A model generated the notes under the pieces. It searched no databases. It was not told where the DNA came from and was given only the letters and a program-made list of their open reading frames with translations. 64,000 nt of DNA. Source: an uncultured bacterium. GTDB lineage: Bacteria > Zhuqueibacterota > QNDG01 > JAGLOF01. Below are positions 139-19,599 of this stretch, piece after piece. Location: contig CAZUMH010000001.1 of NCBI GenBank assembly GCA_964621645.1, forward strand, positions 26,977-90,976, given 5' to 3'. The first letter of the stretch is position 1; each line of letters opens with the position of its first letter. The position numbers and the translations under genes are program-made.

Positions 139-3100
139 ATGATGCTTTCCCATAGTAAATCGAAAAGGGCCCGTGCGATGTTTTTCCTGACCATCACGGG
201 CTTTATATGTATAATCCTGACGGGACAGGCTTTCGCGCAGAATCAGGCGGCCATGTTTGACGGCAATCTGACGGTGAATAATGGCAGCCGAATCCGCATA
301 ACTGACAGCCAGCCCATAGATCCGGGCTCTGCGAATCCTGCTGTATATCAGATCTCGGGGGACCATATTACGGTTGAGGCCTGGGTGTATCCTTTTTCGG
401 CAGACGGACCGTTATATAGCATCGTCCGGCGGCCCGCGGTCTATCCCGATCCGGATCCCCCTTATACTTATTCGCTTCATATGAACGCAGGCGTTCCCTA
501 TTTTGGGATTTCGGACGGGTCCGCGGGCAGTGCCATGGAGACGGATTACTCAGAGACAATTCCCGCCTTTGCATGGACCCACCTGGCCGGAACCTATGAC
601 GGCAGTTATCTCCGGCTGTACGTCAACGGCATTGAAAGAAGCAGTGTATTTATTGAGACGGATATTGGGTCCGGCAGCACAGGGCTTTATATCGGACGCC
701 TGGTCGGACGGGCCTTCGCGGGGCTCATCGATGAGGTGCGTCTCTGGAATATTACCCGGGATCAGGTTGATATTCAGAATGATATGTCTGTTGAGCTCAC
801 GGGAACTGAGACCGGTCTGGCTGGATACTGGAAATTCAATGGAATTGAAGAAATCAACGGCTTTCAGGCGGCCCGAGATTATACGTCAAACAACAATCAC
901 CTCATTGTGCAGTATAACACACCCTTCGTGACTTTCAATCCCATCGACCATCATGATGTGGATGCGGCGATCACCGCCCACACGCCCTCGATCGATTTTG
1001 GCACCATCGAACAGGCGTATGAATGGAAAACCCGAACCATTGACATCACCAATGGTAGTGAGAATCCGCTGGTTGGCATTATGTGGGGCAACATCAGCGC
1101 CAATACCGAAGGAACAGCTGTTATGTATGTACCTCCCTATGGGACCGAGAGCTTCGATATTTCCCTTCGTACAAAGGATGCGGGATCCCTAAGTGGCGAT
1201 ATCGCCATAGATTATAACGGGGGCTCGGAAACGGTATCCGCAACCATAGAGTCCGTCCCCGTCCTGCGCTTTGACGTGAATCAAATTGGATTATGGACCT
1301 CGCGTACCGGTATTGCCGGGTATGATCCTTTTACCGCATCTGCAGGTCTGGAATGGCCGATCGGCAGCGGTAAAACGGCGCTCTACTCAATGGGGATACG
1401 GATAGGGGCTCTCGTTGGAAATGAAATCCGCATCGCAGCCGTCAATTACAACGGCTCTGAGTTCAGCCCCGGTCCTATCATCAACGGAACGCCTGCGGAT
1501 CCGGAGGATCCGATATACCGCATGTACAAAACCGGCGGTCCCGGAGACGGAGACTGGGATGTCTGGCCTCTGGATCAGGGTGCTCCGGCATCTTTTTGGG
1601 GTTCGCCCAAATTGCTGGGAGACCAGACCCTCTTTTCCGTGTATAACGATATGGATCCGGGCAAGCATACGGTTTTTAACACGGCGCCACTGGGTGTCGA
1701 AGTGCAACAGACCGTATACGGCTATGGATCGGGTTCCACCGCGCTGGAAAATACCGTGTTCTTCGTCTACAAAATAATCAACAAGGGTAGCCATACCTGG
1801 GAAAACGCCTATATCTCGGTCTGGGCCGATCCGGACCTCGGTTACTACATGGACGACTTCGCGGGCGTGGATGTAAGCCGCGGCCTTGGATATCTTTATA
1901 ACGCTGACAATTTTGATGACCCCAATGACAGCAATCCTGGCTACGGCACACCCCCGCCGGCTCTGGGCATCGACATGCTGCGCGGAGCGTTTCTCTCAAC
2001 GCCTATCCAGGCATTCACCTATCATACTGGAATAGGCGGTTCAGCTCCCCTTGACGATCCTCAAAACGCCCAGGAGGCCTACAATTACATGCAGGGTCTG
2101 AAGTCGGACGGTTCACCCTTCATGGATGGTGGAACCCCAACGACATTTCCCCTGAGCGGTGATCCGGTAACCGGTACCGGCTGGGTGGATGCGGGAGAAG
2201 CGGACCGGCGCATTATGCTTTCCACCGGTCCCATTACACTGAAGCCGGGGGAATCCAGGCAGGTCATCGCCGCCCTGATAATGGCTGCAGGCAGCGATAA
2301 CATAGACAGCATCACGGAATTACGTAACGCCTCCGATGCCGTACAGCTCCTCTTTGATCCAATTGTGGTTACTTCCGCTGCTGACGCAGGTAACGGCACC
2401 TTCCGTGCGGCTCTCGAAGAGGCCAATGCCAGGCCCGGGATCGATTACATCCATTTTAATATTTCCGGTACTGGAGTGCATACCCTTCAGCCGGCCACTC
2501 CCTATCCTGTTGTCATGGATGCGGTGATTATTGATGGCAAGACTCAGGCTGGCTACAGCGGAACACCATTGATAGAGATCGATGGCTCCGGGGTGACAGG
2601 TACTGATCAGCGTGGTCTGGTCATCATTGCCGGGAATTCCACTGTCAGGGGACTTGCTATCAACCGGTTCGGACAGGCAGGCATTGTGCTTCAGGATAAC
2701 GGCGGTAATACCATTCAGGGCAACTTCATTGGGACAGATGCTGCAGGAGGAACAGCACTGGGTAATGGAGGATTCGCACTTGCAGTCGGTTGCTCCTCCA
2801 ATCTCATCGGTGGTTCCGCGCCAGGCGAGGGCAACCTTATCTCCGGGAATGGTTACGATGGTATTTTTATGAGTGATCCCGGCGGAGATGACAATCAGGT
2901 GCTGGGGAACATTATCGGCTTGGATCTTGATGGCCAGGCGGCTCTTGGAAACGGGCAGTGCGGCGTTCAAATATCAAACAACTGCGTCAATAATATTATC
3001 GGGCCCGACAACATTATTTCCGGGAATGTATCAGCAGGTGTTTGTATCGCAGGCGCCGCCGCGGCCAATAATACGGTGTTGAATAATAAAATCGGTACGG

Positions 3101-6100
3101 ACATCAGTGGTAGTCTTGCCATCGGGAACCTGCAGGGGGTTAATATACAAGCTCCTAATAACATTGTCAGTGCAAATCTAATCTCAGGGAATACAAGCGA
3201 TGGAATTACCCTGCATAATTCAGATGCTCACAACAATACCATCAAGGGCAACATAATCGGTCTGAATGCCGCAGGTGACGCAACACTCGCCAACACCTCT
3301 GTCGGGATCAATATCACAGGTCATCACAATACGGTTGGAGGGAGTACAACGGCTGATAGGAACATCATTTCAGGGAATATTCAGAATGGAATCTGTATCG
3401 AACTCGGAGCAACAGAAAACAACATACTGGGCAACTATATCGGTACAGACATCACGGGGACCAAAGCGGTTCCGAATGATCAGTCGGGCATTCAAATACG
3501 GCTCGCGGCAAACAACCATATCGGCGGCAAGAATGCGGGAGAGGGCAATCTGATCTCCGGCAATGATAAGCATGGGATCTATATTTATGGTACCGGTGTC
3601 ACTTTATCTCACAGCAATACCGTGCAGGGTAATTACATCGGAACTGACAAAACAGGATTGAAGTCACTCCCCAACACCGGCAGCGGCATCCACTACGCAA
3701 CGTACACATGGGGCAACCTGATCGGCGGCCTGGAACCCGGAAGTGGAAATCTCATTGCCTTTAACAATGGAGCTGGTGTTTCTTTTGGAGGAGGGGGTTT
3801 GGCCAGTCCACCTTACAGGAATGCCATATTCTCCAACTCAATATACGCCAATGTCGGTCTTGGGATCGACCTGAATTTCGGTTTGGATGGCACACCTTAC
3901 GGTGAAACACCCAATGATCCAGGCGATGCCGATTTCGGTACCAATGAACTCCAAAATTTCCCGGTATTATCTTCAGTGGAATTCACCACAGATGCTGCCA
4001 TTATTAACGGTTCTCTCAACAGCGCAGCCAACACCGACTATACCATTCAGTGCTTTGCCTGTAAAACGGCACACGAATCAGGCTACGGTGACGGTGAGAC
4101 TTTGCTGGGGACTGAGACGGTGACCACTGATGGATCCGGGAATGTTTCATTTACCTTCACCTTCCCGATTTCGGCTTCAGCCGGCCAGGTCATTTCCATG
4201 ACTGCCACGGATCCTTCAGGCAACACATCGGAATTCTCAGAGGTTAGCGGCGGCGCGGCTTCTCAGCTACTGGATCTGTCAGCAATGACATTTACCATTA
4301 ACAGCCAGGGTGACCCGACGATCGGGGACGGCAGTGATATCACCGCTGTTGAGGCCGCGTTTGCGACATGGAATGCTGTGTCTGAATGCACAGTGAACTT
4401 CAGTACAGTTACCTCTCCAGATTATTCAATTGCCGACGCGAATGACGGTATTAACCTTGTTACCTTCACGGATAACGAATTCCTCTTCGCGCCAGGCGTG
4501 CTGGCAGTGGCCGCCAAGACAATTCGCATGGATGCGGCCGGACTGCCCGCGGAAATCATCGATGCGGATATCGTATATAATCCTTACTGGACCACGCACT
4601 ACAAATACAACTTCAAGACGGATACCGATCCGGGCTACTTCGACATCCAGAGTGTCACCACCCATGAAATCGGCCACGTGCTGGGCCTTGTACACAGCGG
4701 CGTAGAGACCGCCACCATGTTTTTCATGATCGGCTCCGACATCAATGCCAGGACTCTGGAAACCGATGATATGGCCTGGGTACGTTCCAAATATCCGGAA
4801 ACAGGCACCTATTCAGCTACCTATGGCTCGCTTACGGGGAGAATCGAGGATGGTTACTCGTCGGGTACCGGCATAGCGGGCGCGCTGGTCTATGCCATCA
4901 GCGAGGCCACCGGTGATTCGGTACACACATACTCGGATGCCAATGGTGACTTTACCATTCCAGGCCTGCTTCCCGGCAACTATACAGTTTTTGTGGAACC
5001 ACTGGATGGTGATGTATGCGGCTTCGCACTGCGTCCGGCGCATATCAGCGCCTATATCTACGCGATCACCAAGATAACCGACTTCCCGGAGGAATACTAC
5101 AGCGGCACTTCTGAGGGCGTCTCTGAAGTGGAAGATATCGCGGCTATCGTCACGGTATCGGCCGGAGGACCCGCCGGCCCGATCACCATTCTCACGAATC
5201 GGGATGTGACGCCGCCGGTCGTGCTGTCTGTTTCACCGGGCTCCGGCAGCACCGATATAGCCGTCACATCCCAGATACTCGCCGGTTTTTCAGAACCCGT
5301 GGATGCGGCGACCATCAGTGCTTCCACCTGTTTCCTGTCCGTCGGCCCAAATCCTGTGAACTGCCAAATGGACTATACCATGATGGACAACGACAAGAAA
5401 GTGCTGCTGACACCGGGCATACTGCTTCAGCATGAGACTGATTACACCCTCCACATCACCTCCGGTGTAACGGACCTTCACGGGAACGGGCTGAGTTCTG
5501 AATATACCTCGACATTTACGACCATTCCAGCTGATATCGAAGCTCCTTCGGTGACCGGTGTGGTACCGGCTGACGGCGCGGGTTCCATTTTCCCGACAGC
5601 AAATATTACTGTTATCTTTTCCGAACCCGTTGACGCTTCCACCCTGGAAGCCGGATTCACCCTCAGCACGGCGAACATTTCCGATGTGCCGGCTTCTTTT
5701 ACTCTGAATCAGTCCGGATCGACCGTGACTTTTGATCCGGTCAACAGCCTGATGGAAGGGACGACCTATACCGTCACACTAACTGCTGACATCACGGATC
5801 TGTCTGGTAATCCACTGTCATCCGCTCCTTACTCCTCAAGTTTCACGACTGTGGCACAAGCGGCGCCCCTTCTCGAATACATCGGACCCAACCCTGGCCA
5901 GGACAATGTCAGCGTCACGACCACAGTGCTCACGGAGTTTTCCGAACCGATCAATCCTGCGACGGTAAATCCCTCCTCATTTATCCTGCGTCAAGGCAGC
6001 ACGCAGATTGCTGGCAATTTCGAATTCCTGAACAACAACGCCGGTGTGGTTTTCAGGCCGTTTGAGGATCTCGATTTTGGACTGACATATACGATCGAAC

Positions 6101-8040
6101 TCACGTCCGCGATTCAGGACGCCTCATCACCCCCGGAAGCATTCGCGGGCCATATCAGCACCTTCACCACGGCGGTTGAGGCACAGACGCCTGTAATCGC
6201 GTATGTCAATCCTTCGCAAGGTGCGGAGGGGACAGCGGTCGTTATTTCCGGTGAGGGATTCGATCCGGATCCGGCAAACAACGTCGTTTCATTCAACGGC
6301 ATAACAGCGGCGGTTACTGACGCAACCTTAACCAGTCTGGCCGCTTCCGTCCCCATTTCCGCCGTCACCGGACCGCTCGAAGTCACGGTTAACGGCAGTA
6401 CCAGCAACGCCTATTCATTTACTGTCCTTCAGCCTTCAGGATTTCCTGACGAATATGATACAATCAATGTGCCTGGTGAGCTGGACAATCAGGACGTTGA
6501 ATTTTCACCGGACGGCGCTTATGCGTATGTCACCAATACAGGGGCAAACTCTATCAGTGTTATTGATGTGGCGAATGGTGATTTTATCGGACAACCTGTA
6601 TCTGTCGGCGGAAGCCCGGTCAAAATCACGGTAAGCCCGGATGGTAAAAAAGCGTATGTCACCAACTTTGCCTCGCATACCATCTCCGTGTTGAATACGG
6701 CGGTTCCGGCTGATGTTACGGTTGAAACGACAATTCCCGTGGGGATCAATCCGGCCGGTATAGCAATTTCACCGGACGGGAAACGCGTCTATGTCGGCAA
6801 CTATACTTCCCGCAACATTTCCATCATCGATGTGGATGAGAACAGCGGCGGGTATAACCATGTCATCGCCAACGTGGACACCGATTCCGAAAACCGGGAT
6901 GTGGAGTTCGGCCCTGACGGACTTCGGGTGTTAATCACCGGTATGGGTATCATTGTACTCGATACCAATCCGTCTAGTGATACATACAATCAGGTCATTG
7001 CCAATGTGGAGCCGGACACCGAAACACGGGATGTTGATTTCAGTCCCGACGGCATGCTCGCGGTTGTCTCAACCATGGCCGGGAATATACTGCTCATCGA
7101 CATGATGGAAAATACCGCATCACCTTATCAGGTCATTGCCAATATCCATCCCGAGCAGGAGGCCCATGATGTTGAATTCGGACCCGATGGATCACACATT
7201 TATACTACAAATTATTATTATAATCAGCTATCCATCTATGAGCTGACGTATGGCGGTGATACTGGAGGTTCCGGAAGCAGCTATCCCTATATCGCTTCCA
7301 TGCAGTTACTCCAGACAATCGATGTTGGCGGCGCGCCTATGGGGCTTGCGATCGACAGCGGTGGCGAACGTATCATCGTGGCCAATTCAGGATCAGGTGG
7401 TGTTACGATAATCGATCTGTTCGGTACGCCTGAAAGCAATATCAAACATACCCTCAGCACAATTCACCAAATACAGGTGGATGGTTTCATCAACAGCGGC
7501 CAGGCCAACGCCCTCACCAACAAGCTGAACAACGCCTTGGATAAGCTCGCAAAGGGCAAAACGAAAACCGCTATCAATATTCTGGAATCCTTCTGCAATC
7601 AGGTTCAGGCTCTTATTAATGATGGGATAATTCCCGCGGGCATCGGTGAAGACCTAATGAACCGGGTCAAGGATATCATCGTCAGCCTGGTCAGCGGCAG
7701 TTCAGCCAGTCCTGAAGAAGAAAACCTCATGCTTACAGAACAGATGCCTAAGACCTTTTCGCTCGAACAGAACTATCCCAATCCGTTTAATTCGTCTACA
7801 ACTATCGCCTATACCATCCCGGCGGTGTCGGCGAAAACCGTAGATGTTCGACTGATACTCTATAATATTCTGGGGGAACCGGTGCGCACTCTGGTCAGCG
7901 AACAAAAATATCCCGGATTTTACGAAGTGGTCTGGGATGGACGGGACGATGCGAACAGAGATGTCCCCTCAGGCATCTATATTTATCGGGTCAAGGCGGG
8001 CGATTTCACGCAACTCCGGAAGATGATTTTGATTAAATGA
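139..8040 (+). CDS. Giant secreted multidomain T9SS cargo protein (LamG-like, parallel beta-helix repeats, metzincin Zn-protease, CarboxypepD_reg-like, Ig-like/Big, IPT/TIG, YVTN beta-propeller, FIMAH, T9SS C-terminal sorting domain)
   Basis: 2633-aa ORF with RBS GAGGTG 5 nt upstream and an N-terminal signal peptide (FFLTITGFICIILTGQAFAQ). LamG signature LYVNG...IDEVRLWN. About 500 aa of NxISGN/NxIGxD beta-helix repeats. HEIGHVLGLVH (nt 4663-4695), an HExxHxxGxxH metzincin motif. SbsA-Ig-like and IPT segments. Repeated YVTN / SPDGKxxYV propeller units. FIMAH-like helix (ALTNKLNNALDKLAKGKTKTAINIL). C-terminal QNYPNPFN...YNILGEPV...SGIYIYRVKAG...KMILIK is a T9SS CTD. Confidence 0.85.
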   Translation: MMLSHSKSKRARAMFFLTITGFICIILTGQAFAQNQAAMFDGNLTVNNGSRIRITDSQPIDPGSANPAVYQISGDHITVEAWVYPFSADGPLYSIVRRPAVYPDPDPPYTYSLHMNAGVPYFGISDGSAGSAMETDYSETIPAFAWTHLAGTYDGSYLRLYVNGIERSSVFIETDIGSGSTGLYIGRLVGRAFAGLIDEVRLWNITRDQVDIQNDMSVELTGTETGLAGYWKFNGIEEINGFQAARDYTSNNNHLIVQYNTPFVTFNPIDHHDVDAAITAHTPSIDFGTIEQAYEWKTRTIDITNGSENPLVGIMWGNISANTEGTAVMYVPPYGTESFDISLRTKDAGSLSGDIAIDYNGGSETVSATIESVPVLRFDVNQIGLWTSRTGIAGYDPFTASAGLEWPIGSGKTALYSMGIRIGALVGNEIRIAAVNYNGSEFSPGPIINGTPADPEDPIYRMYKTGGPGDGDWDVWPLDQGAPASFWGSPKLLGDQTLFSVYNDMDPGKHTVFNTAPLGVEVQQTVYGYGSGSTALENTVFFVYKIINKGSHTWENAYISVWADPDLGYYMDDFAGVDVSRGLGYLYNADNFDDPNDSNPGYGTPPPALGIDMLRGAFLSTPIQAFTYHTGIGGSAPLDDPQNAQEAYNYMQGLKSDGSPFMDGGTPTTFPLSGDPVTGTGWVDAGEADRRIMLSTGPITLKPGESRQVIAALIMAAGSDNIDSITELRNASDAVQLLFDPIVVTSAADAGNGTFRAALEEANARPGIDYIHFNISGTGVHTLQPATPYPVVMDAVIIDGKTQAGYSGTPLIEIDGSGVTGTDQRGLVIIAGNSTVRGLAINRFGQAGIVLQDNGGNTIQGNFIGTDAAGGTALGNGGFALAVGCSSNLIGGSAPGEGNLISGNGYDGIFMSDPGGDDNQVLGNIIGLDLDGQAALGNGQCGVQISNNCVNNIIGPDNIISGNVSAGVCIAGAAAANNTVLNNKIGTDISGSLAIGNLQGVNIQAPNNIVSANLISGNTSDGITLHNSDAHNNTIKGNIIGLNAAGDATLANTSVGINITGHHNTVGGSTTADRNIISGNIQNGICIELGATENNILGNYIGTDITGTKAVPNDQSGIQIRLAANNHIGGKNAGEGNLISGNDKHGIYIYGTGVTLSHSNTVQGNYIGTDKTGLKSLPNTGSGIHYATYTWGNLIGGLEPGSGNLIAFNNGAGVSFGGGGLASPPYRNAIFSNSIYANVGLGIDLNFGLDGTPYGETPNDPGDADFGTNELQNFPVLSSVEFTTDAAIINGSLNSAANTDYTIQCFACKTAHESGYGDGETLLGTETVTTDGSGNVSFTFTFPISASAGQVISMTATDPSGNTSEFSEVSGGAASQLLDLSAMTFTINSQGDPTIGDGSDITAVEAAFATWNAVSECTVNFSTVTSPDYSIADANDGINLVTFTDNEFLFAPGVLAVAAKTIRMDAAGLPAEIIDADIVYNPYWTTHYKYNFKTDTDPGYFDIQSVTTHEIGHVLGLVHSGVETATMFFMIGSDINARTLETDDMAWVRSKYPETGTYSATYGSLTGRIEDGYSSGTGIAGALVYAISEATGDSVHTYSDANGDFTIPGLLPGNYTVFVEPLDGDVCGFALRPAHISAYIYAITKITDFPEEYYSGTSEGVSEVEDIAAIVTVSAGGPAGPITILTNRDVTPPVVLSVSPGSGSTDIAVTSQILAGFSEPVDAATISASTCFLSVGPNPVNCQMDYTMMDNDKKVLLTPGILLQHETDYTLHITSGVTDLHGNGLSSEYTSTFTTIPADIEAPSVTGVVPADGAGSIFPTANITVIFSEPVDASTLEAGFTLSTANISDVPASFTLNQSGSTVTFDPVNSLMEGTTYTVTLTADITDLSGNPLSSAPYSSSFTTVAQAAPLLEYIGPNPGQDNVSVTTTVLTEFSEPINPATVNPSSFILRQGSTQIAGNFEFLNNNAGVVFRPFEDLDFGLTYTIELTSAIQDASSPPEAFAGHISTFTTAVEAQTPVIAYVNPSQGAEGTAVVISGEGFDPDPANNVVSFNGITAAVTDATLTSLAASVPISAVTGPLEVTVNGSTSNAYSFTVLQPSGFPDEYDTINVPGELDNQDVEFSPDGAYAYVTNTGANSISVIDVANGDFIGQPVSVGGSPVKITVSPDGKKAYVTNFASHTISVLNTAVPADVTVETTIPVGINPAGIAISPDGKRVYVGNYTSRNISIIDVDENSGGYNHVIANVDTDSENRDVEFGPDGLRVLITGMGIIVLDTNPSSDTYNQVIANVEPDTETRDVDFSPDGMLAVVSTMAGNILLIDMMENTASPYQVIANIHPEQEAHDVEFGPDGSHIYTTNYYYNQLSIYELTYGGDTGGSGSSYPYIASMQLLQTIDVGGAPMGLAIDSGGERIIVANSGSGGVTIIDLFGTPESNIKHTLSTIHQIQVDGFINSGQANALTNKLNNALDKLAKGKTKTAINILESFCNQVQALINDGIIPAGIGEDLMNRVKDIIVSLVSGSSASPEEENLMLTEQMPKTFSLEQNYPNPFNSSTTIAYTIPAVSAKTVDVRLILYNILGEPVRTLVSEQKYPGFYEVVWDGRDDANRDVPSGIYIYRVKAGDFTQLRKMILIK

Positions 8041-8098: not shown

Positions 8099-8130
8099 GA
8101 AAGAAGGCGGGCTCACGCCCGCCTTCTTTC
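8099..8130. terminator. Bidirectional rho-independent terminator between convergent genes (14-bp perfect stem GAAAGAAGGCGGGC / GCCCGCCTTCTTTC, loop TCAC)
   Basis: Perfect inverted repeat read directly from the sequence. It lies between the stop of the giant + gene (8040) and the stop of the - strand kinase (8148). Confidence 0.6.
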
Positions 8131-8147: not shown

Positions 8148-9809
8148 TTACCTGAGCCGTCGCATCTGTTGCACGGCTTCTGTTTTCCGCCCGGGATCGG
8201 TCTCAAGATCTGCCACCCGCTGCCAGCAGAAAAGAGCGGAGTCCGCAAAACCCGCTTTTTCGAACGCTTCCGCCGTCAGACGCAGGGTTTCCGTCTGGTC
8301 CGGCATTTCGGCATTGGATTTCTTCAGCCACCCAATTGCCTTTGTCGTCTCACCGTGTTTCAAATACGCTTCACCGAGATGACGCTGGATGATAGCGTTT
8401 AGCCGGGTGTCAGGGGTTCGTTCGATCGCATGTTCCAATATGGGAATAGCTTCATCAGTCCGCCCCAGCTCGATGAGAACATTCCCCAGTGCGCTGTATG
8501 CCAGGGTTAGATCCGGATCATGGGAAACGGCCTTACGATACGCTCTGACGGCTTCATCGTAGCGACGTTGATTCTCAAGCGCATATCCAAGATTGTAATA
8601 AGCCGGTGCGTAGGTGCTGTCCAACGCAATTGCCTTCTGTATACAGGTAAATGCCGAGTCCGGTTTGCCGGTGTTGATGTATACGGTGCCCAGCAGATTC
8701 CAAATCCTGACCAGGCCGGGATCGAAAGCCAGTGCCTTTCTCAGCGCTGAGACGGCTTCAACCGGTCTGTTCGCCGAGATATGGGACCGGCCCTGTTCAA
8801 CATACTGACGGGCAAGACGTTTCTTCCCGGCCTGCTGTGAAAAGGGTCCCCATAAAAACAGATATACTATCGCGGCAGCAAGGATAATGCAGCCGGGAAC
8901 AAGAAAGCGGGCCGTCTTTTTCAAATCTATCCGCTGAGGAAGTCCCGATCTGATGGTCTTTCCCTTTTCAAGGGACTTTATGGCCTGTCCGCTGGATTCT
9001 CCCTTTATTATTCGTTTGATTTCACTGACAATTTCGCCGGCATTGGCAAAACGATTTTCTTTATCCTTGGCCATGGCTTTCAGGATCAGGGCCTCGAAGG
9101 CCGGATCAATATCAGGATTGATTTCGCTGGGAGGGTCTGGCTGTTCATTGACAATGGCGTACATGACAGCCAGTTGATGGTCCGCATAGAAGGGAAGCCG
9201 GCCTGTCATCATCTGATAGCAAATGACACCGAATGAGTAGAGATCACTGCGATGATCCACCTCCCCCCCTTGCGCCTGTTCCGGAGGCATAAAAGCCGCA
9301 GTTCCAAGCGTCATACCCGAACGTGTATACTGCGAACCCATGGACAGCTTGGCAATCCCAAAATCCATAACCCGGACACGACCACGCTTATCAACCATAA
9401 TGTTAGCGGCTTTTAAATCACGATGAATGATCCCCTTTTCATGGGCGGCACTCAACGCCTCAGCGATTTGCAGGGCAATATCCAGGACCTTATCTGCGGG
9501 CATTGCCTTATCCTCGATAAGATCCTGAAGGTCACATCCTTCAATATATTCCATGACGATGCATGGGTGTCCGTCTGACTCACAGAAGTCAAAAATTGTA
9601 CAGATATTCGTATGATTCAACGTTGCGAGAATTTTTGCTTCCCGGGCCAGTCTATCCTTCAACTCATCCTGCAGTGGTGCCGCTGATGTCACAAATTTGA
9701 GGCCGACGATTCGGTCAAGCACGGTATCCTGAGCTTTGTAAACACTGCCCATTCCGCCTTCACCAAGTTTTTCAAGGATTGTATAGTGAGAAATAGTCCT
9801 GCCGATCAT
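8148..9809 (-). CDS. Hanks-type serine/threonine protein kinase with one TM segment and C-terminal TPR repeats
   Basis: Gly loop LGEGGMGSVYKA, VGLK lysine, catalytic HRDLKAANIMV, DFG...APE activation segment (DFGIAKL...AFMPPE). TM helix (FLVPGCIILAAAIVYLFLW) followed by several TPR units (AYYNLGYALENQRRYDEAVRAYRKAV...). Confidence 0.9.
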   Translation of the reverse strand: MIGRTISHYTILEKLGEGGMGSVYKAQDTVLDRIVGLKFVTSAAPLQDELKDRLAREAKILATLNHTNICTIFDFCESDGHPCIVMEYIEGCDLQDLIEDKAMPADKVLDIALQIAEALSAAHEKGIIHRDLKAANIMVDKRGRVRVMDFGIAKLSMGSQYTRSGMTLGTAAFMPPEQAQGGEVDHRSDLYSFGVICYQMMTGRLPFYADHQLAVMYAIVNEQPDPPSEINPDIDPAFEALILKAMAKDKENRFANAGEIVSEIKRIIKGESSGQAIKSLEKGKTIRSGLPQRIDLKKTARFLVPGCIILAAAIVYLFLWGPFSQQAGKKRLARQYVEQGRSHISANRPVEAVSALRKALAFDPGLVRIWNLLGTVYINTGKPDSAFTCIQKAIALDSTYAPAYYNLGYALENQRRYDEAVRAYRKAVSHDPDLTLAYSALGNVLIELGRTDEAIPILEHAIERTPDTRLNAIIQRHLGEAYLKHGETTKAIGWLKKSNAEMPDQTETLRLTAEAFEKAGFADSALFCWQRVADLETDPGRKTEAVQQMRRLR

Positions 9810-10044: not shown

Positions 10045-10878
10045 TCAATCGCGAGCCACCGGCTGATAGACAATTACCACCTGCTTTTCCCCGCAATCGG
10101 GACAGGTGCGGGCCTTGCCTGCTTCCACATTGCCCCCAATGGCTACTCCTCCCCGGAATGCATCGGCGGCGGAAAGACCGAAAATAAACGATCCCGGATA
10201 TAGCTTGCTACACCCGGCGCAGAACAGTCGGCAGGGGCCGTCCGCGGCGCTGACAAAGAAAGGATTGAATCCACCGCCTCCCGGATTCGGTACGCTGTTC
10301 AGCAGGCTCCCGTATATATCACCGAACTCATCCAGACTCAGTGACAGTCCGACCGGTATATTTCTTCCCTGAACAATTCTGGAAAACATCGCCTCATCAT
10401 CGATTATCGGCACTTTCATATCCAGAACGGCCATCATCTCAGCTGATTTCAGCAACCTGTTTTCCGTGTCGGTCAGCGACTGCCGTCTTTTCTCAGCAAC
10501 TTTGAGCACGGAAGGATCCTCTTCGTTCTCGATAATCTCCCCTAAGACGCCATCATCTGCAGTTTTTTCAATCGCGGCGATCTGGACAGTGGTATTTCCC
10601 TGGAAAGCTGTTCTGGCCAGCCTGTTTATATACCCCGGATCGGTGATATGATCGAGCGCGGCGATGCGCACATCTGTCTCCTTGTCAAATGATGCATGGC
10701 TGAAAAGAGCGCGCTGATTAGTCATTCTTGCTACCGCCGCTTTCCGCACATCCGCATTGTTATCGCTACATGCAATTTTTTCCAGAATCTCCTGATCGTC
10801 GACGCGGTCGATTTCAGCGATACGCACTGCGGGATCCGAGTGCTGCCATTTTGGTTTGAATAAGTTGGAGATTGGCAT
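10045..10878 (-). CDS. HEAT-repeat (PBS-lyase-like) protein with C-terminal Cys-rich (CxxC...CxxC) tail
   Basis: Repeated DPAVRIAEI / DVRKAAVARM / DVRIAALDHI units typical of HEAT_2/PBS-lyase repeats. C-terminal CAGCSKL...CPDCGEK resembles a zinc ribbon. Same strand as, and upstream of, the kinase. Confidence 0.55.
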   Translation of the reverse strand: MPISNLFKPKWQHSDPAVRIAEIDRVDDQEILEKIACSDNNADVRKAAVARMTNQRALFSHASFDKETDVRIAALDHITDPGYINRLARTAFQGNTTVQIAAIEKTADDGVLGEIIENEEDPSVLKVAEKRRQSLTDTENRLLKSAEMMAVLDMKVPIIDDEAMFSRIVQGRNIPVGLSLSLDEFGDIYGSLLNSVPNPGGGGFNPFFVSAADGPCRLFCAGCSKLYPGSFIFGLSAADAFRGGVAIGGNVEAGKARTCPDCGEKQVVIVYQPVARD

Positions 10879-11027: not shown

Positions 11028-11063
11028 GTGACCCTGTCAGGGTCTGGAACCCTGACAGGGTCA
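11028..11063. promoter_or_regulatory. 36-bp near-perfect palindrome (TGACCCTGTCAGGGTC-TGGAA-CCCTGACAGGGTCA) in the divergent region upstream of the PadR operon
   Basis: Read directly from the sequence. Two 15-bp inverted copies, each internally dyad-symmetric. It ends 50 bp upstream of a sigma70-like promoter. Confidence 0.4.
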
Positions 11064-11113
11064 TAAACGAAAAGTCACTATTCCATAGAACGGAGAAAAA
11101 AATAAAAAAACAC

Positions 11114-11142
11114 TTGCAATACCTAATTGAATTATGTATAAT
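11114..11142 (+). promoter_or_regulatory. Sigma70-like promoter (TTGCAA - 17 bp - TATAAT) immediately upstream of PadR
   Basis: TTGCAA at 11114-11119 and TATAAT at 11137-11142, with a 17-bp spacer and an A-rich tract upstream. The -10 element overlaps the first in-frame ATG at 11141, which suggests a short-leader or leaderless transcript using the ATG at 11153. Confidence 0.35.
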
Positions 11143-11485
11143 GCCTCTAGGTATGGGAAACAACTTTACAAGAGAACTGATCGCCGCTTCGACGATTCCG
11201 CTTATTCTGGCCGTGCTTCGGGAGGAAGAAAGCTACGGATACGCGATCATCAAGCGCGTCCGCGGGCTCTCGCAGGAGACCCTGGAATGGACCGAGGGGA
11301 TGCTCTATCCCGTCCTGCATCGGCTGGAAAAACAGGAACTGATCAAATCCTACTGGTCAAAAGAACAGGGCAGACGCAGGAGATACTATCGCCTCCTTCC
11401 GGCCGGAGTGGCGGAATTGGAGCGGCTTAAGAAGCAATGGACCTCTATCAATTCGACCCTGAACAGGTCATGGGGGCAGGTATGA
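11141..11485 (+). CDS. PadR-family transcriptional regulator
   Basis: Winged-helix PadR signature YGYAIIKRVRGLSQETLEWTEGMLYPVLHRLEKQELIKSYW...RRYYRLLPAG. The track ORF (10970-11485) has an unlikely 57-aa N-terminal extension, so an internal ATG (11141 or 11153) is preferred. The stop overlaps the next gene in ATGA fashion. Confidence 0.8.
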   Translation: MPLGMGNNFTRELIAASTIPLILAVLREEESYGYAIIKRVRGLSQETLEWTEGMLYPVLHRLEKQELIKSYWSKEQGRRRRYYRLLPAGVAELERLKKQWTSINSTLNRSWGQV

Positions 11486-12834
11486 AATTCGACATAGAGC
11501 AGAAAATTAAAAATTGGAAAGACTATCTGAATTCGCGCGGCAGTTTTTTACCTGACGATCTGGAGGAACTGGAAACACATCTTCGCGATGAAATCGACGC
11601 GCTGCAGAAAAACGGTCTGGACGCGGAGGAAGCGTATTTCATCGGCATCAAGCGGCTGGGCAAATCCGATGCCCTTTCCCGGGAGTTTTACAAAATCAAC
11701 GCCCAGTCCCTGTGGAAGCACCTGTTCACTCCTTCCGAACCCGGCGGAAGGAAAGCTGCCCGCCGCGATATCTGGATAATTATCGGTCTCGCTCTGCTTG
11801 CCGGATTTCTCGGGAAAATCCCCGATCTGTTCGGGTACCGGATCAGCAACAAATCCGACAGTCTTATCTACCTGCGGAACCTAAGTCTGTTTTTCATCCC
11901 TGTGATCGGCGGCTGGTTCCTTATTCAGAAAAAAAATTGGGGGACCGGTTTTTATCTGTTCGCGATAATCTGCCTCGGTGGCTTCCTTGCTGTCAATTTC
12001 TTTCCCTTTACAGGCGCGGGACATACTGAAATCTTGGCGGGTATCCATCTGATCATTCTGCTCTGGATGGTTCTTGAACGGCTCTACGGTCCAGGTCAGG
12101 AGATCGCCGCCGGCCGCATGAATTACATCACCTTCAGCGGTGAATTCTTCATCTACTCGGTGCTCTGCTACCTCGGTATCGGTGTGTTTACCATGTTTAC
12201 TATTGCCTTGTTCGAAACGCTGAACATCAGGCCCGATAAATTCATTCTTGAATATATCGTCGTGTTCGGCGGTCTGGGTGTGCCGGTTGTGGCGGTCTAT
12301 CTGGTGGAGAAGAAGAAAGCGCTCATCGAGAATATGGCTCCCGTGCTGGCAAACATTTTCACTCCCCTGTTTCTGCTGCTCATCAGCGGATTCGTCGCCG
12401 CGCTTTTGGGGCGACGATTGAATCTGACCGTTCAGAGGGAAACTCTGATCATTTTTGACTTCCTCCTGGTTCTGGTTTTAGGGCTTGTGCTCTATTCCCT
12501 TTCGGCGCGAAATCATTCAGAAAAGCCCCTCTTTTCCGACTATCTGGTGTTTATCCTGATTCTGGTCACACTTCTCGCGGACGTTTTCGCCATGAGTGCC
12601 ATCATTTCCCGGCTCAGTCAGTTCGGGCTGAGCCCGAATAAAGTGGCCGCATTGGGTGAAAATATCCTTCTCTTCATCAACCTGTCCGGACTGGCGGTGA
12701 CCTTCGGCGGGATCATCTTCAAAGGCAGGGATTTCCGCCGGCTGGAAGTCTGGCAGTCCTGCTGTTATGTGGGATTCATGGTCTGGATGGCCGTCGTGGT
12801 GTTCATCTTTCCCATTGCTTTTCATTTTGCCTGA
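11482..12834 (+). CDS. Polytopic membrane protein with N-terminal 'permease prefix domain' (PadR-associated sensor/permease-like protein)
   Basis: N-terminal cytoplasmic helix LEELETHLRDEIDALQKNGLDAEEAYFIGIKRLG matches the PadR-associated permease-prefix motif. At least 10 predicted TM helices follow. GGGGCAGGT RBS and ATGA overlap with the PadR stop. Confidence 0.7.
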   Translation: MKFDIEQKIKNWKDYLNSRGSFLPDDLEELETHLRDEIDALQKNGLDAEEAYFIGIKRLGKSDALSREFYKINAQSLWKHLFTPSEPGGRKAARRDIWIIIGLALLAGFLGKIPDLFGYRISNKSDSLIYLRNLSLFFIPVIGGWFLIQKKNWGTGFYLFAIICLGGFLAVNFFPFTGAGHTEILAGIHLIILLWMVLERLYGPGQEIAAGRMNYITFSGEFFIYSVLCYLGIGVFTMFTIALFETLNIRPDKFILEYIVVFGGLGVPVVAVYLVEKKKALIENMAPVLANIFTPLFLLLISGFVAALLGRRLNLTVQRETLIIFDFLLVLVLGLVLYSLSARNHSEKPLFSDYLVFILILVTLLADVFAMSAIISRLSQFGLSPNKVAALGENILLFINLSGLAVTFGGIIFKGRDFRRLEVWQSCCYVGFMVWMAVVVFIFPIAFHFA

Positions 12835-12946
12835 GAATAAGCGGATGATTTCCCGGCTTTGAACCTGCCAGAATACGGTAGACTGGTAAAGAAAGACTGA
12901 GATGAAATAACACATCATACATTCAACTTGCACAGGAGAATGGAAT

Positions 12947-14131
12947 ATGAACAGTTCAGAATCCGCATCCCGTGAACAGAGAAAAATGACGAACATTTTT
13001 GAACGCTATCTGACAATCTGGGTGGGGCTTTGCATTCTCTTCGGCATCCTGCTCGGGAAAATCGCCCCTTCCGTGGCGACAACGCTGGATAACATGTCTA
13101 TCTATGTCGGCGATGCACCTGTGGTATCGATCCCCATCGCGATCTGCCTTTTCTTTATGATGTATCCCATTATGGTGAAAATCGATTTTCAGGAAGTAAT
13201 CCGGGCAGGCAAGAACGGAAAGCCGGTGGGATTAACGCTCTTTCTAAACTGGGCGGTCAAACCGTTTACAATGTATGCAATCGCCTTCTTTTTTCTCGGT
13301 GTCCTTTTCAGGGGATTGATCGGCACTGAAGCAGTCGATTTGGTTAAACTGCCCTTTGGGCTGGATTTACCGGTTGGAGCCAGGCATGGAGCCGGAACCG
13401 TTATTTTGCATCAAGGAGTGAAAATGCTGCAGGTGCCTCTCTGGAGAAGCTATCTGGCGGGAGCGATCCTGCTCGGCATCGCGCCCTGTACGGCCATGGT
13501 TCTGGTCTGGGGATATCTGGCTCGTGGAAACGATGGACTCACTCTGGTAATGGTGGCCATCAACTCCCTCACGATGCTGGTGCTGTACGGAGTCCTCGGC
13601 GGATTTCTTCTCGGGATCGGCAGGCTGCCGGTTCCCTGGCAAGCGCTGTTTCTTTCAATTGCCGTATATGTGGCTCTTCCTCTGATTGCAGGATATTTCT
13701 CCCGAAAATGGCTCATCGCCGTTAAGGGAATTACATGGTTCAAGGAAAAATTTCTTCATATCCTGACTCCGATTACCATTATCGCACTTCTCGTCACCCT
13801 GATCCTGCTTTTTAGCTTTAAAGGAGAGATTATCCTTTCCAATCCGCTTACAATTTTATGGATTGCTATTCCGCTTTTCGTCCAGACCAATCTCATTTTC
13901 TGGCTGGGGTATGGTCTCGCCCGTTTGTTGAAATTAAAATATCAGGATGCTGCTCCCGCTGCCATGATAGGCGCTTCCAACCACTTTGAAGTCGCTATCG
14001 CGACATCCACTATGCTGTTTGGGTTGTCTTCCGGTGCGGCCCTGGCAACGGTTGTCGGAGTTCTGATCGAAGTTCCTGTCATGCTGATGCTTGTCAGAAT
14101 CTGTCGCAGGACACAAGGATGGTTTGATTAA
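12947..14131 (+). CDS. acr3: Arsenite efflux transporter, ACR3 family
   Basis: ACR3 hallmarks FERYLTIWV near the N-terminus and [26 protein letters not shown]. About 10 TM segments. There is an unusual ~35-aa insertion before the RSYLAG motif and a 13-aa N-terminal extension. Confidence 0.85.
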
Positions 14132-18142: not shown

Positions 18143-18577
18143 TTAATTTTCCAGGGAGTCAGGCAGCGTCTGGATAAATGCCCTGATCTCATCCCTGATC
18201 TTTCTGTAGATGCCGAGAACTTCCTCTTCTGACTTTGCGTACCTGGCCAGAAAAGGTGGATCGGCGAAACTTTTATGCAGTTTTTTCACCGGTCCGGGAA
18301 AAACAGGACAGCTCTCCCGCGCCTGATCGCATACCGTGACAACCCAGTCAAAAGGGATCTGCAGCACCTCTTTCACATGAGTGGAGCGCTGCTCCGAGAT
18401 ATCAACTCCGGCTTCGGCCATGACTCTCACGGCGAGAGGATCCAGTTCCCGCGGCTCTATCCCGGCGGACCAGACGTCGATCCGGTCTTCTTTCAAATGA
18501 CGGGTCCAGCCCTCCGCCATCTGGCTGCGGCAAGAGTTACCGCTGCAGAGAAAGAGTAGTTTCAACTTCGTGCGCAT
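18143..18577 (-). CDS. arsC: Arsenate reductase ArsC, LMW-PTP / thioredoxin-coupled type
   Basis: P-loop LFLCSGNSCRSQMAEG (CX5R). Downstream Cys in VTVCDQARESCP matches the Cys82/Cys89-type relay of thioredoxin-coupled ArsC. The start is taken at MRTKLKLLFL; the track ORF begins 9 codons earlier. Confidence 0.85.
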   Translation of the reverse strand: MRTKLKLLFLCSGNSCRSQMAEGWTRHLKEDRIDVWSAGIEPRELDPLAVRVMAEAGVDISEQRSTHVKEVLQIPFDWVVTVCDQARESCPVFPGPVKKLHKSFADPPFLARYAKSEEEVLGIYRKIRDEIRAFIQTLPDSLEN

Positions 18578-18891
18578 TATCAGTCCCCAGGGCGTAAATT
18601 CCACCTGGCTACCCGTTAGATGGAATTAACATACGACTGAGATGGGTATTCCGCAAGGGAATTCTCAATTACCGCCTGGCGTCGGCCACCAGGCTTGTCT
18701 TTTTTCTTGCTTTTAAAGATCAATATTCCTAAAATAGACACGATTAGGGATTCTTTCTTATTTATTAATCCACATGCCAAATGAATGAAAAAGAAGATGT
18801 TATCCGACCGAAAGGGTACTATGTAACGGACAAAAGGACTGACCCTCGCTGAATGATTGTATTTGTCATCACCAACCCATAAGGAGTGACT

Positions 18892-19599
18892 ATGAACATC
18901 CCGACAAAACTGGTGTGCCTGACGATATTCTCTCTGCTGCTTCTCACCGCCTGCAGCACCAACCGGCTGCATGAGTACACCCTGGAAAATACCACAGCTG
19001 CTGCCGAGATGTCCCCGGCGCCGCGGGCTCAGGTGTTTTCTCACACCTTCTTCGCTCCGAGCGGAAACATCGTTTCCGCGCTGATCGAGGCCGGCACCAA
19101 CATCGCCAAGGAGGTCGAGGCCCAGAAAGCGCAGCGGAAACTGGACAGCGCCATGGTACAGGTGGATATTCCGGAGATTATACGGTACCGGACCCTGCAG
19201 AAATGCAGCCGCCATCTCGAGATGCGGCCGGTGGAAAAACGCGAGCAGGCGGATTTTGTCTACGTGATGCGCATTAAAAAATACGGCATAGAAGCGGAAT
19301 CATGGACAGCCCAGGTCCAGTTTTTAATCGATGTAAACGTGCGTATGATCGACAATGAGAAGGAACTGAAGATCTGGGAACGAAACATCCATGAACGCAT
19401 GGATATCACCGGCTCTATTTTCGGTTTCAGCGAACGGCTGGGCGACGTGATCACGGCAGCGGCATTATCGAAACTGACGGAAGAGCAAATGGTAGAAGGA
19501 TTTGCAAACCTGGCGGAATACGCCGCCGGAAGAGTCGCCGAACGGATTTACGATGATTTTCTTGAATCACGGGAGAGACTGGAGGAACAAACCCAATAG
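18892..19599 (+). CDS. Hypothetical lipoprotein
   Basis: Signal peptide with lipobox LLLLTAC. Charged C-terminal half with no identifiable domain. Confidence 0.5.
   Translation: MNIPTKLVCLTIFSLLLLTACSTNRLHEYTLENTTAAAEMSPAPRAQVFSHTFFAPSGNIVSALIEAGTNIAKEVEAQKAQRKLDSAMVQVDIPEIIRYRTLQKCSRHLEMRPVEKREQADFVYVMRIKKYGIEAESWTAQVQFLIDVNVRMIDNEKELKIWERNIHERMDITGSIFGFSERLGDVITAAALSKLTEEQMVEGFANLAEYAAGRVAERIYDDFLESRERLEEQTQ

Follow-up and report, generated by a model that had tools for sequence, protein, structure and literature searches.

Gene content and layout of the locus

Within the 64-kb stretch of DNA analysed here (the window), three genes follow one another on the + strand: a PadR-family winged-helix regulator of 110 aa (11153..11485), a 450-aa membrane protein (11482..12834) and, beyond a gap of 112 bp (12835..12946), an intact ACR3-family arsenite efflux permease of 394 aa (12947..14131). 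A 35-bp palindrome that we class as REP-like (11029..11063) and a sigma70-like promoter (11114..11142, + strand) enclosing a predicted PadR operator (a 21-bp inverted repeat, 11119..11139) lie upstream of padR. A thioredoxin-type ArsC with an LMW-PTP fold is encoded on the − strand (18143..18604), about 4 kb away, where an earlier note on this DNA had placed it. Arsenite efflux genes are usually found in operons controlled by ArsR. The earlier note had proposed that at this locus arsenic resistance is controlled in a non-canonical manner, by the PadR protein or by a membrane sensor, and that the palindrome serves as the operator.

PadR and its membrane partner

In a profile search the regulator scored 78.5 bits with PF03551, for which the cut-off is 27, and this identifies it as a stand-alone PadR-type winged-helix protein and agrees with its earlier assignment. 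The nearest NCBIfam model, padR_acidobact (TIGR03433), scored 79.4 bits, below its own cut-off. The ATG of the membrane gene at 11482 overlaps the TGA of padR as ATGA, an arrangement that supports the proposed translational coupling, and an in-frame ATG at 11437 offers an alternative start for the membrane protein. This protein had been described as having ten or more transmembrane segments and a permease prefix, and both features were recovered: it is a firm match to NCBIfam perm_prefix_1 (NF038403; 34.7 bits, cut-off 30), and its AlphaFold model has an N-terminal three-helix domain (residues 5-61), a disordered linker and about 10-12 further helices. For the polytopic domain, Pfam and structure searches returned neither a Pfam family nor a solved structural relative. 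Membership of the HAAS superfamily was tested against PF22564, DUF1700 and DUF1048; the matches of the prefix domain to Pfam HAAS were weak (2/48 family members, E about 0.07), and a profile of the N-terminal domain, compared with PDB sequences, matched only designed helical proteins and no HAAS structure.

The pairing of the two genes is strongly conserved. Both are kept in all five close relatives, at 71-84% identity, and in a distant set of 80 genomes or loci from many phyla the PadR gene lay directly upstream of the membrane gene in 71 of 78 loci. ACR3 does not share this pattern: it did not follow the PadR pair in any of the five close relatives, and it was found within 10 kb or less of the module in none of the 80 distant loci. 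An ACR3 gene beside the PadR module was therefore seen in this genome only and in none of the 85 other module loci examined. Judged by gene order, padR and the membrane gene are a conserved, self-contained module of which acr3 is not a part. The module is very widespread yet uncharacterised.

Dyads of HAAS and PadR-like wHTH proteins have been proposed (PMC11237479), and the PadR repressors of Listeria mainly regulate their own operons, which encode membrane proteins (PMC6624303). The module resembles these dyads and the Listeria lstR and lltR operons in that a stand-alone PadR gene directly precedes, and is coupled to, a gene for a membrane protein, in that the partner has a short N-terminal helical domain followed by a multi-TM domain, in that the predicted operator, placed within the module's own promoter, points to autoregulation, and in that the pairing is widespread and conserved. 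It differs from them in that its polytopic domain of about 10-12 helices is without Pfam family or solved structural relative, and in that its prefix domain is only marginally similar to Pfam HAAS, the firm match being to the NCBIfam permease prefix domain 1. The acr3 gene downstream, present in this genome only, is a further departure from both the dyads and the Listeria operons.

A predicted operator in the padR promoter

The near-consensus sigma70 promoter reported earlier was recovered by a promoter scan as TTGCAA-17-TATAAT (11114-11142), with 10 of 12 positions matching. Since its -10 hexamer ends 10 nt before the padR ATG, the padR mRNA is probably leaderless or nearly so. The relatives share the promoter block at almost every base, while the intergenic DNA around it is not alignable. 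Between the -35 and -10 hexamers, the spacer is filled by the inverted repeat ATACCTA-ATTGAAT-TATGTAT (11119-11139), and an additional TAGGTAT half-site (11148-11154) overlaps the padR start codon. The corresponding motif, ATACMT-N9-AKGTAT, occurred with no mismatch in 41 of 66 PadR-upstream regions of family loci and with at most one mismatch in 60 of the 66, compared with 0.2% of 1320 control windows. At this latter stringency, 11119-11139 is the sole site in the 64-kb window.

The position and the family-wide recurrence of the 21-bp inverted repeat suggest that it is most likely the PadR operator, implying autoregulation. We suggest that padR and its coupled permease-prefix (HAAS-like) membrane gene may form a self-contained two-gene signalling module, in which PadR would most likely bind ATACCTA-N7-TATGTAT in its own promoter and so repress the module, and the membrane protein, presumed to be the sensor partner of PadR, would relieve this repression on sensing a signal that is probably envelope-related. 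A motif so sharply defined and spanning phyla makes the PadR/membrane-protein module experimentally tractable.

The palindrome belongs to a REP-like repeat family

The earlier note had described a near-perfect palindrome of 36 bp at 11028-11063. Such an element exists; it is 35 bp long, starts one base later and has perfect arms. It reads TGACCCTGTCAGGGT-CTGGA-ACCCTGACAGGGTCA, with 15-nt arms that are 100% complementary and a 5-nt loop, and it can equally be read as a self-palindromic 13-14-mer (the 14-mer being ACCCTGNCAGGGTC) that occurs twice in direct orientation at a spacing of 18 bp. The pattern of the repeat can be written ACCCTGNCAGGGT-N5-ACCCTGNCAGGGT. Its predicted DNA fold of -19.1 kcal/mol (z = -6.3) was equalled by none of 200 shuffled sequences. 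The palindrome occurs once in the 64-kb window, 51 bp upstream of the -35 hexamer, in a 274-bp intergenic region between divergent genes. We rejected the idea that it is an intrinsic terminator, since neither strand has a T-run after it and it stands between divergent genes. An Rfam search in E-value mode gave no match to an RNA family for the palindrome, for the 112-bp gap or for the DNA downstream of acr3.

The 24-base core of the palindrome was matched in at least 120 metagenome loci, with several metagenomes supplying multiple repeat-carrying contigs. Of 128 elements, 113 had complementary centre bases and 98 a loop of 5 nt; the single 13-nt unit did not occur in 1.3 Mb of sequence from the other loci retrieved. 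The genes next to the copies stand in all four orientations at about equal frequency, and some copies lie in frame inside real genes. The largest cluster of flanking proteins is a Y1/HUH family whose only NCBIfam match is the REP-associated tyrosine transposase, at 45-65 bits and so under the cut-off of 80; JGI names relatives of this family RayT. In three loci a RayT-like ORF is bracketed by copies of the repeat (L128, at 413 and 1041; L194, at 2051 and 2799; L210, at 547 and 1196). Because its core recurs in at least 120 loci, next to neighbours in every orientation, in frame within genes and on both sides of RayT-like genes, we class the palindrome as REP-like, and it appears to be a member of a widespread repeat family associated with RayT-like genes.

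Several features are shared with described REP/RAYT systems (PMC2817692, PMC3733652), namely a perfect hairpin of 31-35 bp, a mostly intergenic location, and copies that bracket an IS200-like Y1/HUH gene whose best match is the REP-associated tyrosine transposase. In-frame copies inside functional genes also have precedents, in some REPs and in Rickettsia palindromic elements (RPEs) (PMC3733652). Described REPs carry a GTAG or CGTC tetranucleotide at one end (PMC3733652), whereas the family here is without this tag: a search of the 10-nt flanks of 133 elements turned up the tags in only 1-4; the sole enrichment in the flanks was of A at -1 and T at +1. Other differences are that each arm of the repeat is itself palindromic, that the 13-nt core was found in contigs of 30-70% GC, unlike the species-specific REP families described, and that the 64-kb window holds one copy and no RayT gene, high copy number within the host genome being a hallmark of REPs. 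A literature search with the core of the palindrome brought up nothing but unrelated primer sequences, and no description of it by sequence was found in the searchable literature. A widespread, RayT-associated family of REP-like palindromes that also lies in frame inside protein-coding genes is a by-product of this analysis.

The proposal that the palindrome is the PadR operator is not supported: no copy lies upstream of PadR in the five relatives, the element belongs to the REP-like family, and the conserved motif is elsewhere. We think it quite improbable that the palindrome is a functional site of another kind, either the operator of a different regulator (for example of the divergent gene at 10045-10878) or a hairpin with a structural or insulating role between the divergent promoters. 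The 274-bp divergent intergenic region would suit such a role, tandem self-palindromic 13-mers spaced 18 bp apart are reminiscent of some tandem operators, and the relatives L002 and L004 have GC-rich hairpins at a similar position. Yet the L002 hairpin is itself a repeat, found on both sides of the module, and the core of the palindrome recurs in at least 120 unrelated contexts without preferred neighbour orientation, coding genes included, next to protein families that are nearly all different (151 clusters among 175 proteins); the missing T-run after the palindrome on both strands also counts against this role. In our reading the 35-bp element is probably a stray member of a widespread family of mobile, REP-type palindromes and not the operator.

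ACR3, ArsC and the absence of ArsR

The identification of ACR3 was borne out by a full-length match to TIGR00832 (371 bits, cut-off 282.8, model positions 2-327) and by the motifs GIAPCTAMV and SNHFEVAIA in the translation. The Cys of P-C-T-A-M and the Glu of N-x-F-E-x-A-I-A have been reported to be essential in characterised Acr3 proteins. The gene has a ribosome-binding site, AGGAGA, 7 nt upstream, and its product is 81-90% identical to many homologues. ArsC, whose likely start is the Met at 18577, matches PF01451 and scores 132 bits with TIGR02691, below the cut-off of that model; the CX5R loop and a Cys82/Cys89-type catalytic pair are present, and it is 62-75% identical to the ArsCs of ars clusters, including 75% to the ArsC inside the ars operon of locus L008. 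The absence of ArsR that had been remarked on extends to the whole 64-kb window, in which five ArsR queries gave no tblastn match, and no HTH_5/ArsR domain emerged when small ORFs nearby were scanned with Pfam. Nor does the window contain arsP, arsM or thioredoxin/DsbD genes.

In other genomes the closest homologues of this ACR3 are found in ArsR-type settings, as were all five distinct ACR3 contexts sampled. The metagenome-assembled genome GCA_016934955.1 has the PadR pair on one contig and an arsR-DGC-arsC-acr3 cluster on another, and other close homologues lie in arsR-arsP-trx-...-acr3 clusters. The ACR3 proteins of ArsR-controlled operons of the arsR-arsP-trx-dsbD-arsC-arsM-acr3 type are 82-90% identical to that of the window, and the acr3 leader in the window resembles the arsM-acr3 junction of L008. 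Unlike these operons, the window lacks arsR, arsP, arsM and the thioredoxin/DsbD genes; its acr3 and arsC are separated by 4 kb, stand on different strands and both have foreign neighbours. We suggest that acr3 is probably an orphan here, its counterparts in relatives being members of clusters that begin with arsR.

The 112-bp gap and transcription of acr3

The apparent operon of the earlier note is interrupted by neither a predicted promoter nor a predicted terminator: a consensus scan, which misses weak or non-sigma70 promoters, found no promoter-like site on the + strand between 11142 and 14241, and a scan for terminators, likewise based on consensus matches, found none in the 112-bp gap. 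The gap also contains no inverted repeat and is not unusually folded (RNA fold z = -0.75), and comparison with the regions upstream of arsR in L008, L010 and L012 yielded no usable ArsR-type inverted repeat shared with it. The last ~48 nt of the gap match the arsM-acr3 junction of L008, the closest homologue in this anchored comparison, at 27 of 48 positions (p < 0.0002); L010 was marginal (20/48, p = 0.03), L012, L213 and L215 were not significant, and aligning the complete gap locally with arsM 3′ ends gave no significant result either. The opening part of the gap shows weak similarity to the DNA 3′ of the membrane gene in L001 (z = 3.0; 3 of 500 shuffles score as high). Terminator-like hairpins stand right after the membrane gene in the relatives L002, L004 and L005 and were seen neither in the window nor in L001. 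ARAGORN did not recognise a tRNA gene in a tRNA-like fragment noticed by eye in L001.

Transcription from the PadR promoter could plausibly read through into acr3, because the gap is without a predicted promoter or terminator and the acr3 leader is like an arsM-acr3 junction from within an operon. With its intercistronic-type leader 112 bp past the PadR module, acr3 would probably be transcribed at least in part in this way.

Is arsenite efflux under PadR control?

We consider it likely that three unrelated parts, each of a known kind, have come together at this locus by chance, and a new arsenic control system is not supported. What remains of the tie between acr3 and PadR would be an accidental, lineage-specific link by read-through. 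That PadR, alone or together with its membrane sensor, stands in for ArsR as a dedicated regulator of arsenite or oxyanion efflux, using the 35-bp palindrome as its binding site to run a padR-membrane-acr3 operon, strikes us as very improbable indeed. Such a regulator would fit the three genes on one strand with a gap of 112 bp, the lack of a predicted terminator or promoter in that gap, and a window devoid of ArsR. The comparative evidence speaks against it, as none of the 85 module loci carries ACR3, a related genome keeps its acr3 under arsR on another contig, the palindrome is a mobile repeat that is not conserved upstream of PadR in relatives, and the family-wide operator motif is located elsewhere. 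The PadR- or membrane-sensor-based control of arsenic resistance put forward in the earlier note is not supported, given the same absence of ACR3 from other module loci and the ArsR-type clusters of the nearest ACR3 relatives, and as originally posed the finding gives no pointer to a new arsenic-sensing mechanism. The locus illustrates how same-strand adjacency and a striking palindrome can mislead.

Two further accounts concern acr3 itself. It could be a unit of its own, with a promoter, within the gap or close to it, that went unrecognised and is either constitutive or answers in trans to an ArsR whose gene lies beyond the window; its PadR neighbourhood would then be of no regulatory consequence. 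We regard this as somewhat unlikely. Consensus scans miss weak or atypical promoters, the contig extends to at least 101 kb, of which the 64-kb window is just a part, and ArsC is detached as well, so that scattered ars genes may share a distant regulator. Against this stand the lack of a promoter-like site and of an inverted repeat in the gap, the resemblance of the acr3 leader to an operon-internal intercistronic junction, and the terminator that follows the membrane gene in three relatives and is missing here. It is less likely again, in our estimation, that a promoterless acr3 from an ArsR-type operon was captured by the promoter of the PadR/membrane-sensor module, which would place efflux under a membrane-stress-type sensor rather than an arsenite-binding repressor; a stronger form of this idea, with arsenite acting on the sensor itself, is far less probable. 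If true, the capture would be a case of natural regulatory rewiring, in which a resistance gene comes under a new promoter.

Gene order around padR and acr3

We compared the gene order proposed in the earlier note, PadR, a membrane protein and ACR3 with an ATGA overlap and no ArsR in the window, with the sequence and ORF list, and it was confirmed. The padR gene (11153-11485, + strand; Pfam PadR, 78.5 bits) is followed by a membrane gene (11482-12834, +) whose ATG overlaps the padR stop as ATGA and, after a gap of 112 bp, by acr3 (12947-14131, +; TIGR00832, 371 bits against a cut-off of 282.8), with conserved Cys and Glu motifs intact. The membrane protein matches NCBIfam permease prefix domain 1 (34.7 against a cut-off of 30) and had no family in a Pfam search. 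A thioredoxin-type ArsC lies at 18143-18604 (-), and no ArsR was found in the 64-kb window with five different ArsR queries or among the small ORFs close to ArsC. A 199-aa ORF 11 bp upstream of ArsC (18616-19215, -) has no family match, and a 277-aa gene divergent from padR (10045-10878, -), which has an ortholog-like neighbour in the closest relative, L001, gave only weak HEAT or PD40 hints. A perfect hairpin with 14-nt arms at 8099-8130, GAAAGAAGGCGGGC-N4-GCCCGCCTTCTTTC, sits between a convergent 2633-aa ORF (139-8040) and a Ser/Thr kinase-TPR gene (8148-9809) and is probably a bidirectional terminator.

The protein collection holds 119 homologues of the membrane protein, and five close relatives (71-84% identity) were examined in their own contigs. 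PadR is immediately upstream in all five; the downstream neighbour varies among PKD-repeat proteins, convergent genes or an AT-rich stretch (in one relative IS200-like by eye) and is ACR3 in none. A scan of the genome collection, using the family alignment as query, gave 80 loci spread over many phyla, with PadR directly upstream in 71 of the 78 that have enough upstream sequence and ACR3 in the flanks, up to 10 kb, of none. PadR and the membrane protein form a conserved module of which ACR3 is no part. It agrees with a proposal drawn from comparative genomics, the HAAS-PadR dyad (PMC11237479), and its pairing of PadR with a membrane-protein gene resembles that of the Listeria PadR repressors, whose main targets are their own operons, which code for membrane proteins (PMC6624303). 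In L001, AT-rich DNA flanks the module (L001:6940-7671 and L001:9354-10042); it carries a tRNA-like fragment, in which ARAGORN calls no tRNA gene, and the minus strand of the downstream flank has, by eye, an IS200-type transposase look. Local rearrangement around the module is suggested in this relative.

A predicted operator in the padR promoter

To locate conserved upstream sequence, PadR upstream regions from the window and the five relatives were aligned. The 35-bp palindrome, which the earlier note regarded as a strong candidate operator, has no counterpart in any of the five, and the sole conserved block is the promoter block TTGCAATACCTAATTGAATTATGTATAAT, near-invariant with its spacer included, which in the window contains a sigma70-like promoter (TTGCAA-17-TATAAT, 11114-11142, +). 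Within the block is an inverted repeat, ATACCTA-N7-TA(T/G)GTAT. In the 150 bp upstream of PadR at 66 distant loci, the motif ATACMT-N9-AKGTAT occurred without mismatch in 41 and with at most one in 60, against 0.2% of 1320 control windows from the same loci at either threshold. The single site with at most one mismatch in the whole 64-kb window is 11119-11139, which exactly fills the interval between the -35 and -10 hexamers, and there is no second such site near acr3. This strong phylogenetic-footprint evidence makes 11119-11139 the predicted PadR operator, where autorepression would act by promoter occlusion. No Shine-Dalgarno sequence precedes padR. Because only 10 nt separate the end of the -10 hexamer from the padR ATG (11142-11155) and this short geometry is kept in the relatives, the mRNA is probably leaderless or nearly so.

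The palindrome as a probable REP-like element

The palindrome itself exists, although the 36 bp from 11028 first described were one base off in both start and length: it spans 11029-11063, with 15-nt arms that are 100% complementary and a 5-nt loop (DNA fold -19.1 kcal/mol, z = -6.3). Rfam contains no matching family, and the searchable literature gave no match to the sequence. A metagenome scan with the pattern ACCCTGNCAGGGT-N2-8-ACCCTGNCAGGGT (24 specified bases), which the window palindrome fits, found at least 120 loci. The matches listed include 128 distinct elements: 113 have two centre bases that are complementary, and 98 have a 5-nt loop. Among these matches, host contigs range from 30 to 70% GC, and the flanking proteins are nearly all unrelated (175 proteins in 151 clusters). 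In many elements variable outer stems lengthen the hairpin. The four classes of flanking-gene orientation are about equally common (18, 17, 17 and 16 among the matches listed), which argues against a terminator or operator role for the family.

Also among the matches listed, ORFs of at least 100 aa contain 26 of 133 occurrences. Several of these ORFs are real genes whose reading frame continues through the palindrome: a TonB-dependent receptor, xanthine-dehydrogenase-like enzymes, a MeaB-mutase fusion, a histidine kinase and T9SS-tailed proteins (for example L094:1396-1426, L100:1490-1520, L208:3640-3670 and L111:834-864, and further L116:1832-1862, L184:4048-4078 and 4321-4351, and L212:3022-3050). 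Such copies recall the Rickettsia palindromic elements. The host genes appear intact, and those of L100 and L208 are seemingly orthologous and share the insertion site. Direct tandem arrays of the 13-nt unit ACCCTGNCAGGGT occur too, with a period of 18-19 bp and spacers rich in C or G (L125:490-559, and starting at L167:1011, L179:325, L180:7124 and L122:1236); some lie within ORFs, where a period of 18 bp would correspond to repeats of 6 residues.

One recurrent protein family flanks palindrome copies, a Y1/HUH family of 187-206 aa with an NHFHLL motif. Its sole NCBIfam match is REP-associated tyrosine transposase (45-65 bits, under the cut-off of 80), and its relatives in the database carry the JGI name "REP element-mobilizing transposase RayT". 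In L128, L194 and L210, two palindrome copies bracket the RayT-like gene, as in REP-RAYT units, which are defined by a transposase gene bracketed by two repeat copies (PMC2817692); unlike in REPs, no GTAG or CGTC tag was found at the palindrome elements. The 64-kb window has one palindrome copy and no RayT gene. Given the family properties, the RayT-like bracketing and the absence of even a single 13-nt unit from 1.3 Mb of other loci examined, the best interpretation of the window copy is as a mobile palindrome of REP-like type. In the relative L002 (GCA_016934955.1; L002:7548-7580 and L002:9458-9478) the module has on each side a repeated GC-rich hairpin of another kind, CGGGGACCTCACAGGTCCCCG, which may be another REP-like family; since L002 has its own hairpin there, repeats seem to collect in the intergenic spaces around the module.

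Origin and expression of acr3

The window ACR3 is 81-90% identical to many homologues, and every ACR3 context examined has an ArsR-type cluster: arsR-arsP-trx-trx-dsbD-(arsC)-(arsM)-acr3 in L008, L010 and L012, arsR-arsP-trx-arsC-acr3-arsM in L213 and L214, and arsR-DGC-arsC-acr3 in L215. The last comes from MAG GCA_016934955.1, which carries its PadR module on another contig, so module and acr3 are unlinked there and acr3 is with arsR. With ACR3 linkage in 0/80 loci and 0/5 relatives, and acr3 elsewhere accompanied by arsR, the dedicated PadR-based arsenic system that had been proposed is not supported.

We considered how acr3 might be transcribed. Consensus scans found no terminator-like site in the 112-bp gap, which is not unusually structured, and no + strand promoter-like site from the PadR promoter as far as 14241; terminator-like hairpins directly follow the membrane gene in L002, L004 and L005 and are absent in L001 and the window. 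In an ungapped comparison, the last 48 nt before acr3 agree with the arsM-stop/acr3 junction of L008, the closest homologue, at 27 of 48 positions (p < 0.0002), and at 18 of 34 (p = 0.001) when the RBS region is left out. This match, in a leader lacking a promoter-like site, suggests that acr3 brought along an intercistronic leader but no promoter, which would make read-through from the PadR promoter plausible, with the chances about evenly balanced on the consensus scans and one leader comparison. If so, acr3 would be a passenger of a module linked to arsenic nowhere else.

The earlier assignment of the palindrome as operator is wrong. The locus is best read as a mosaic specific to this lineage, made up of a PadR/membrane-sensor module, a stray REP-like palindrome and an orphan acr3 for which promoter capture may provide expression. 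The module is of a known type, and acr3 and the palindrome are likewise of known kinds; the original claim is of less use than two other results, the repeat family and the operator motif.

The ACR3 subtype (12947-14131), at about 394 aa, is some 44 residues longer than the TIGR00832 model, and 81-90% identity among records labelled Thermodesulfobacteriota, Kiritimatiellia, KSB1 and Deltaproteobacteria implies very strong conservation or frequent horizontal transfer. Between its arsP/trx genes and dsbD, the L008 ars cluster encodes a 426-aa fusion of thioredoxin and MerB (organomercurial lyase family; L008:3111-4391), which is not a usual companion of arsenic genes.
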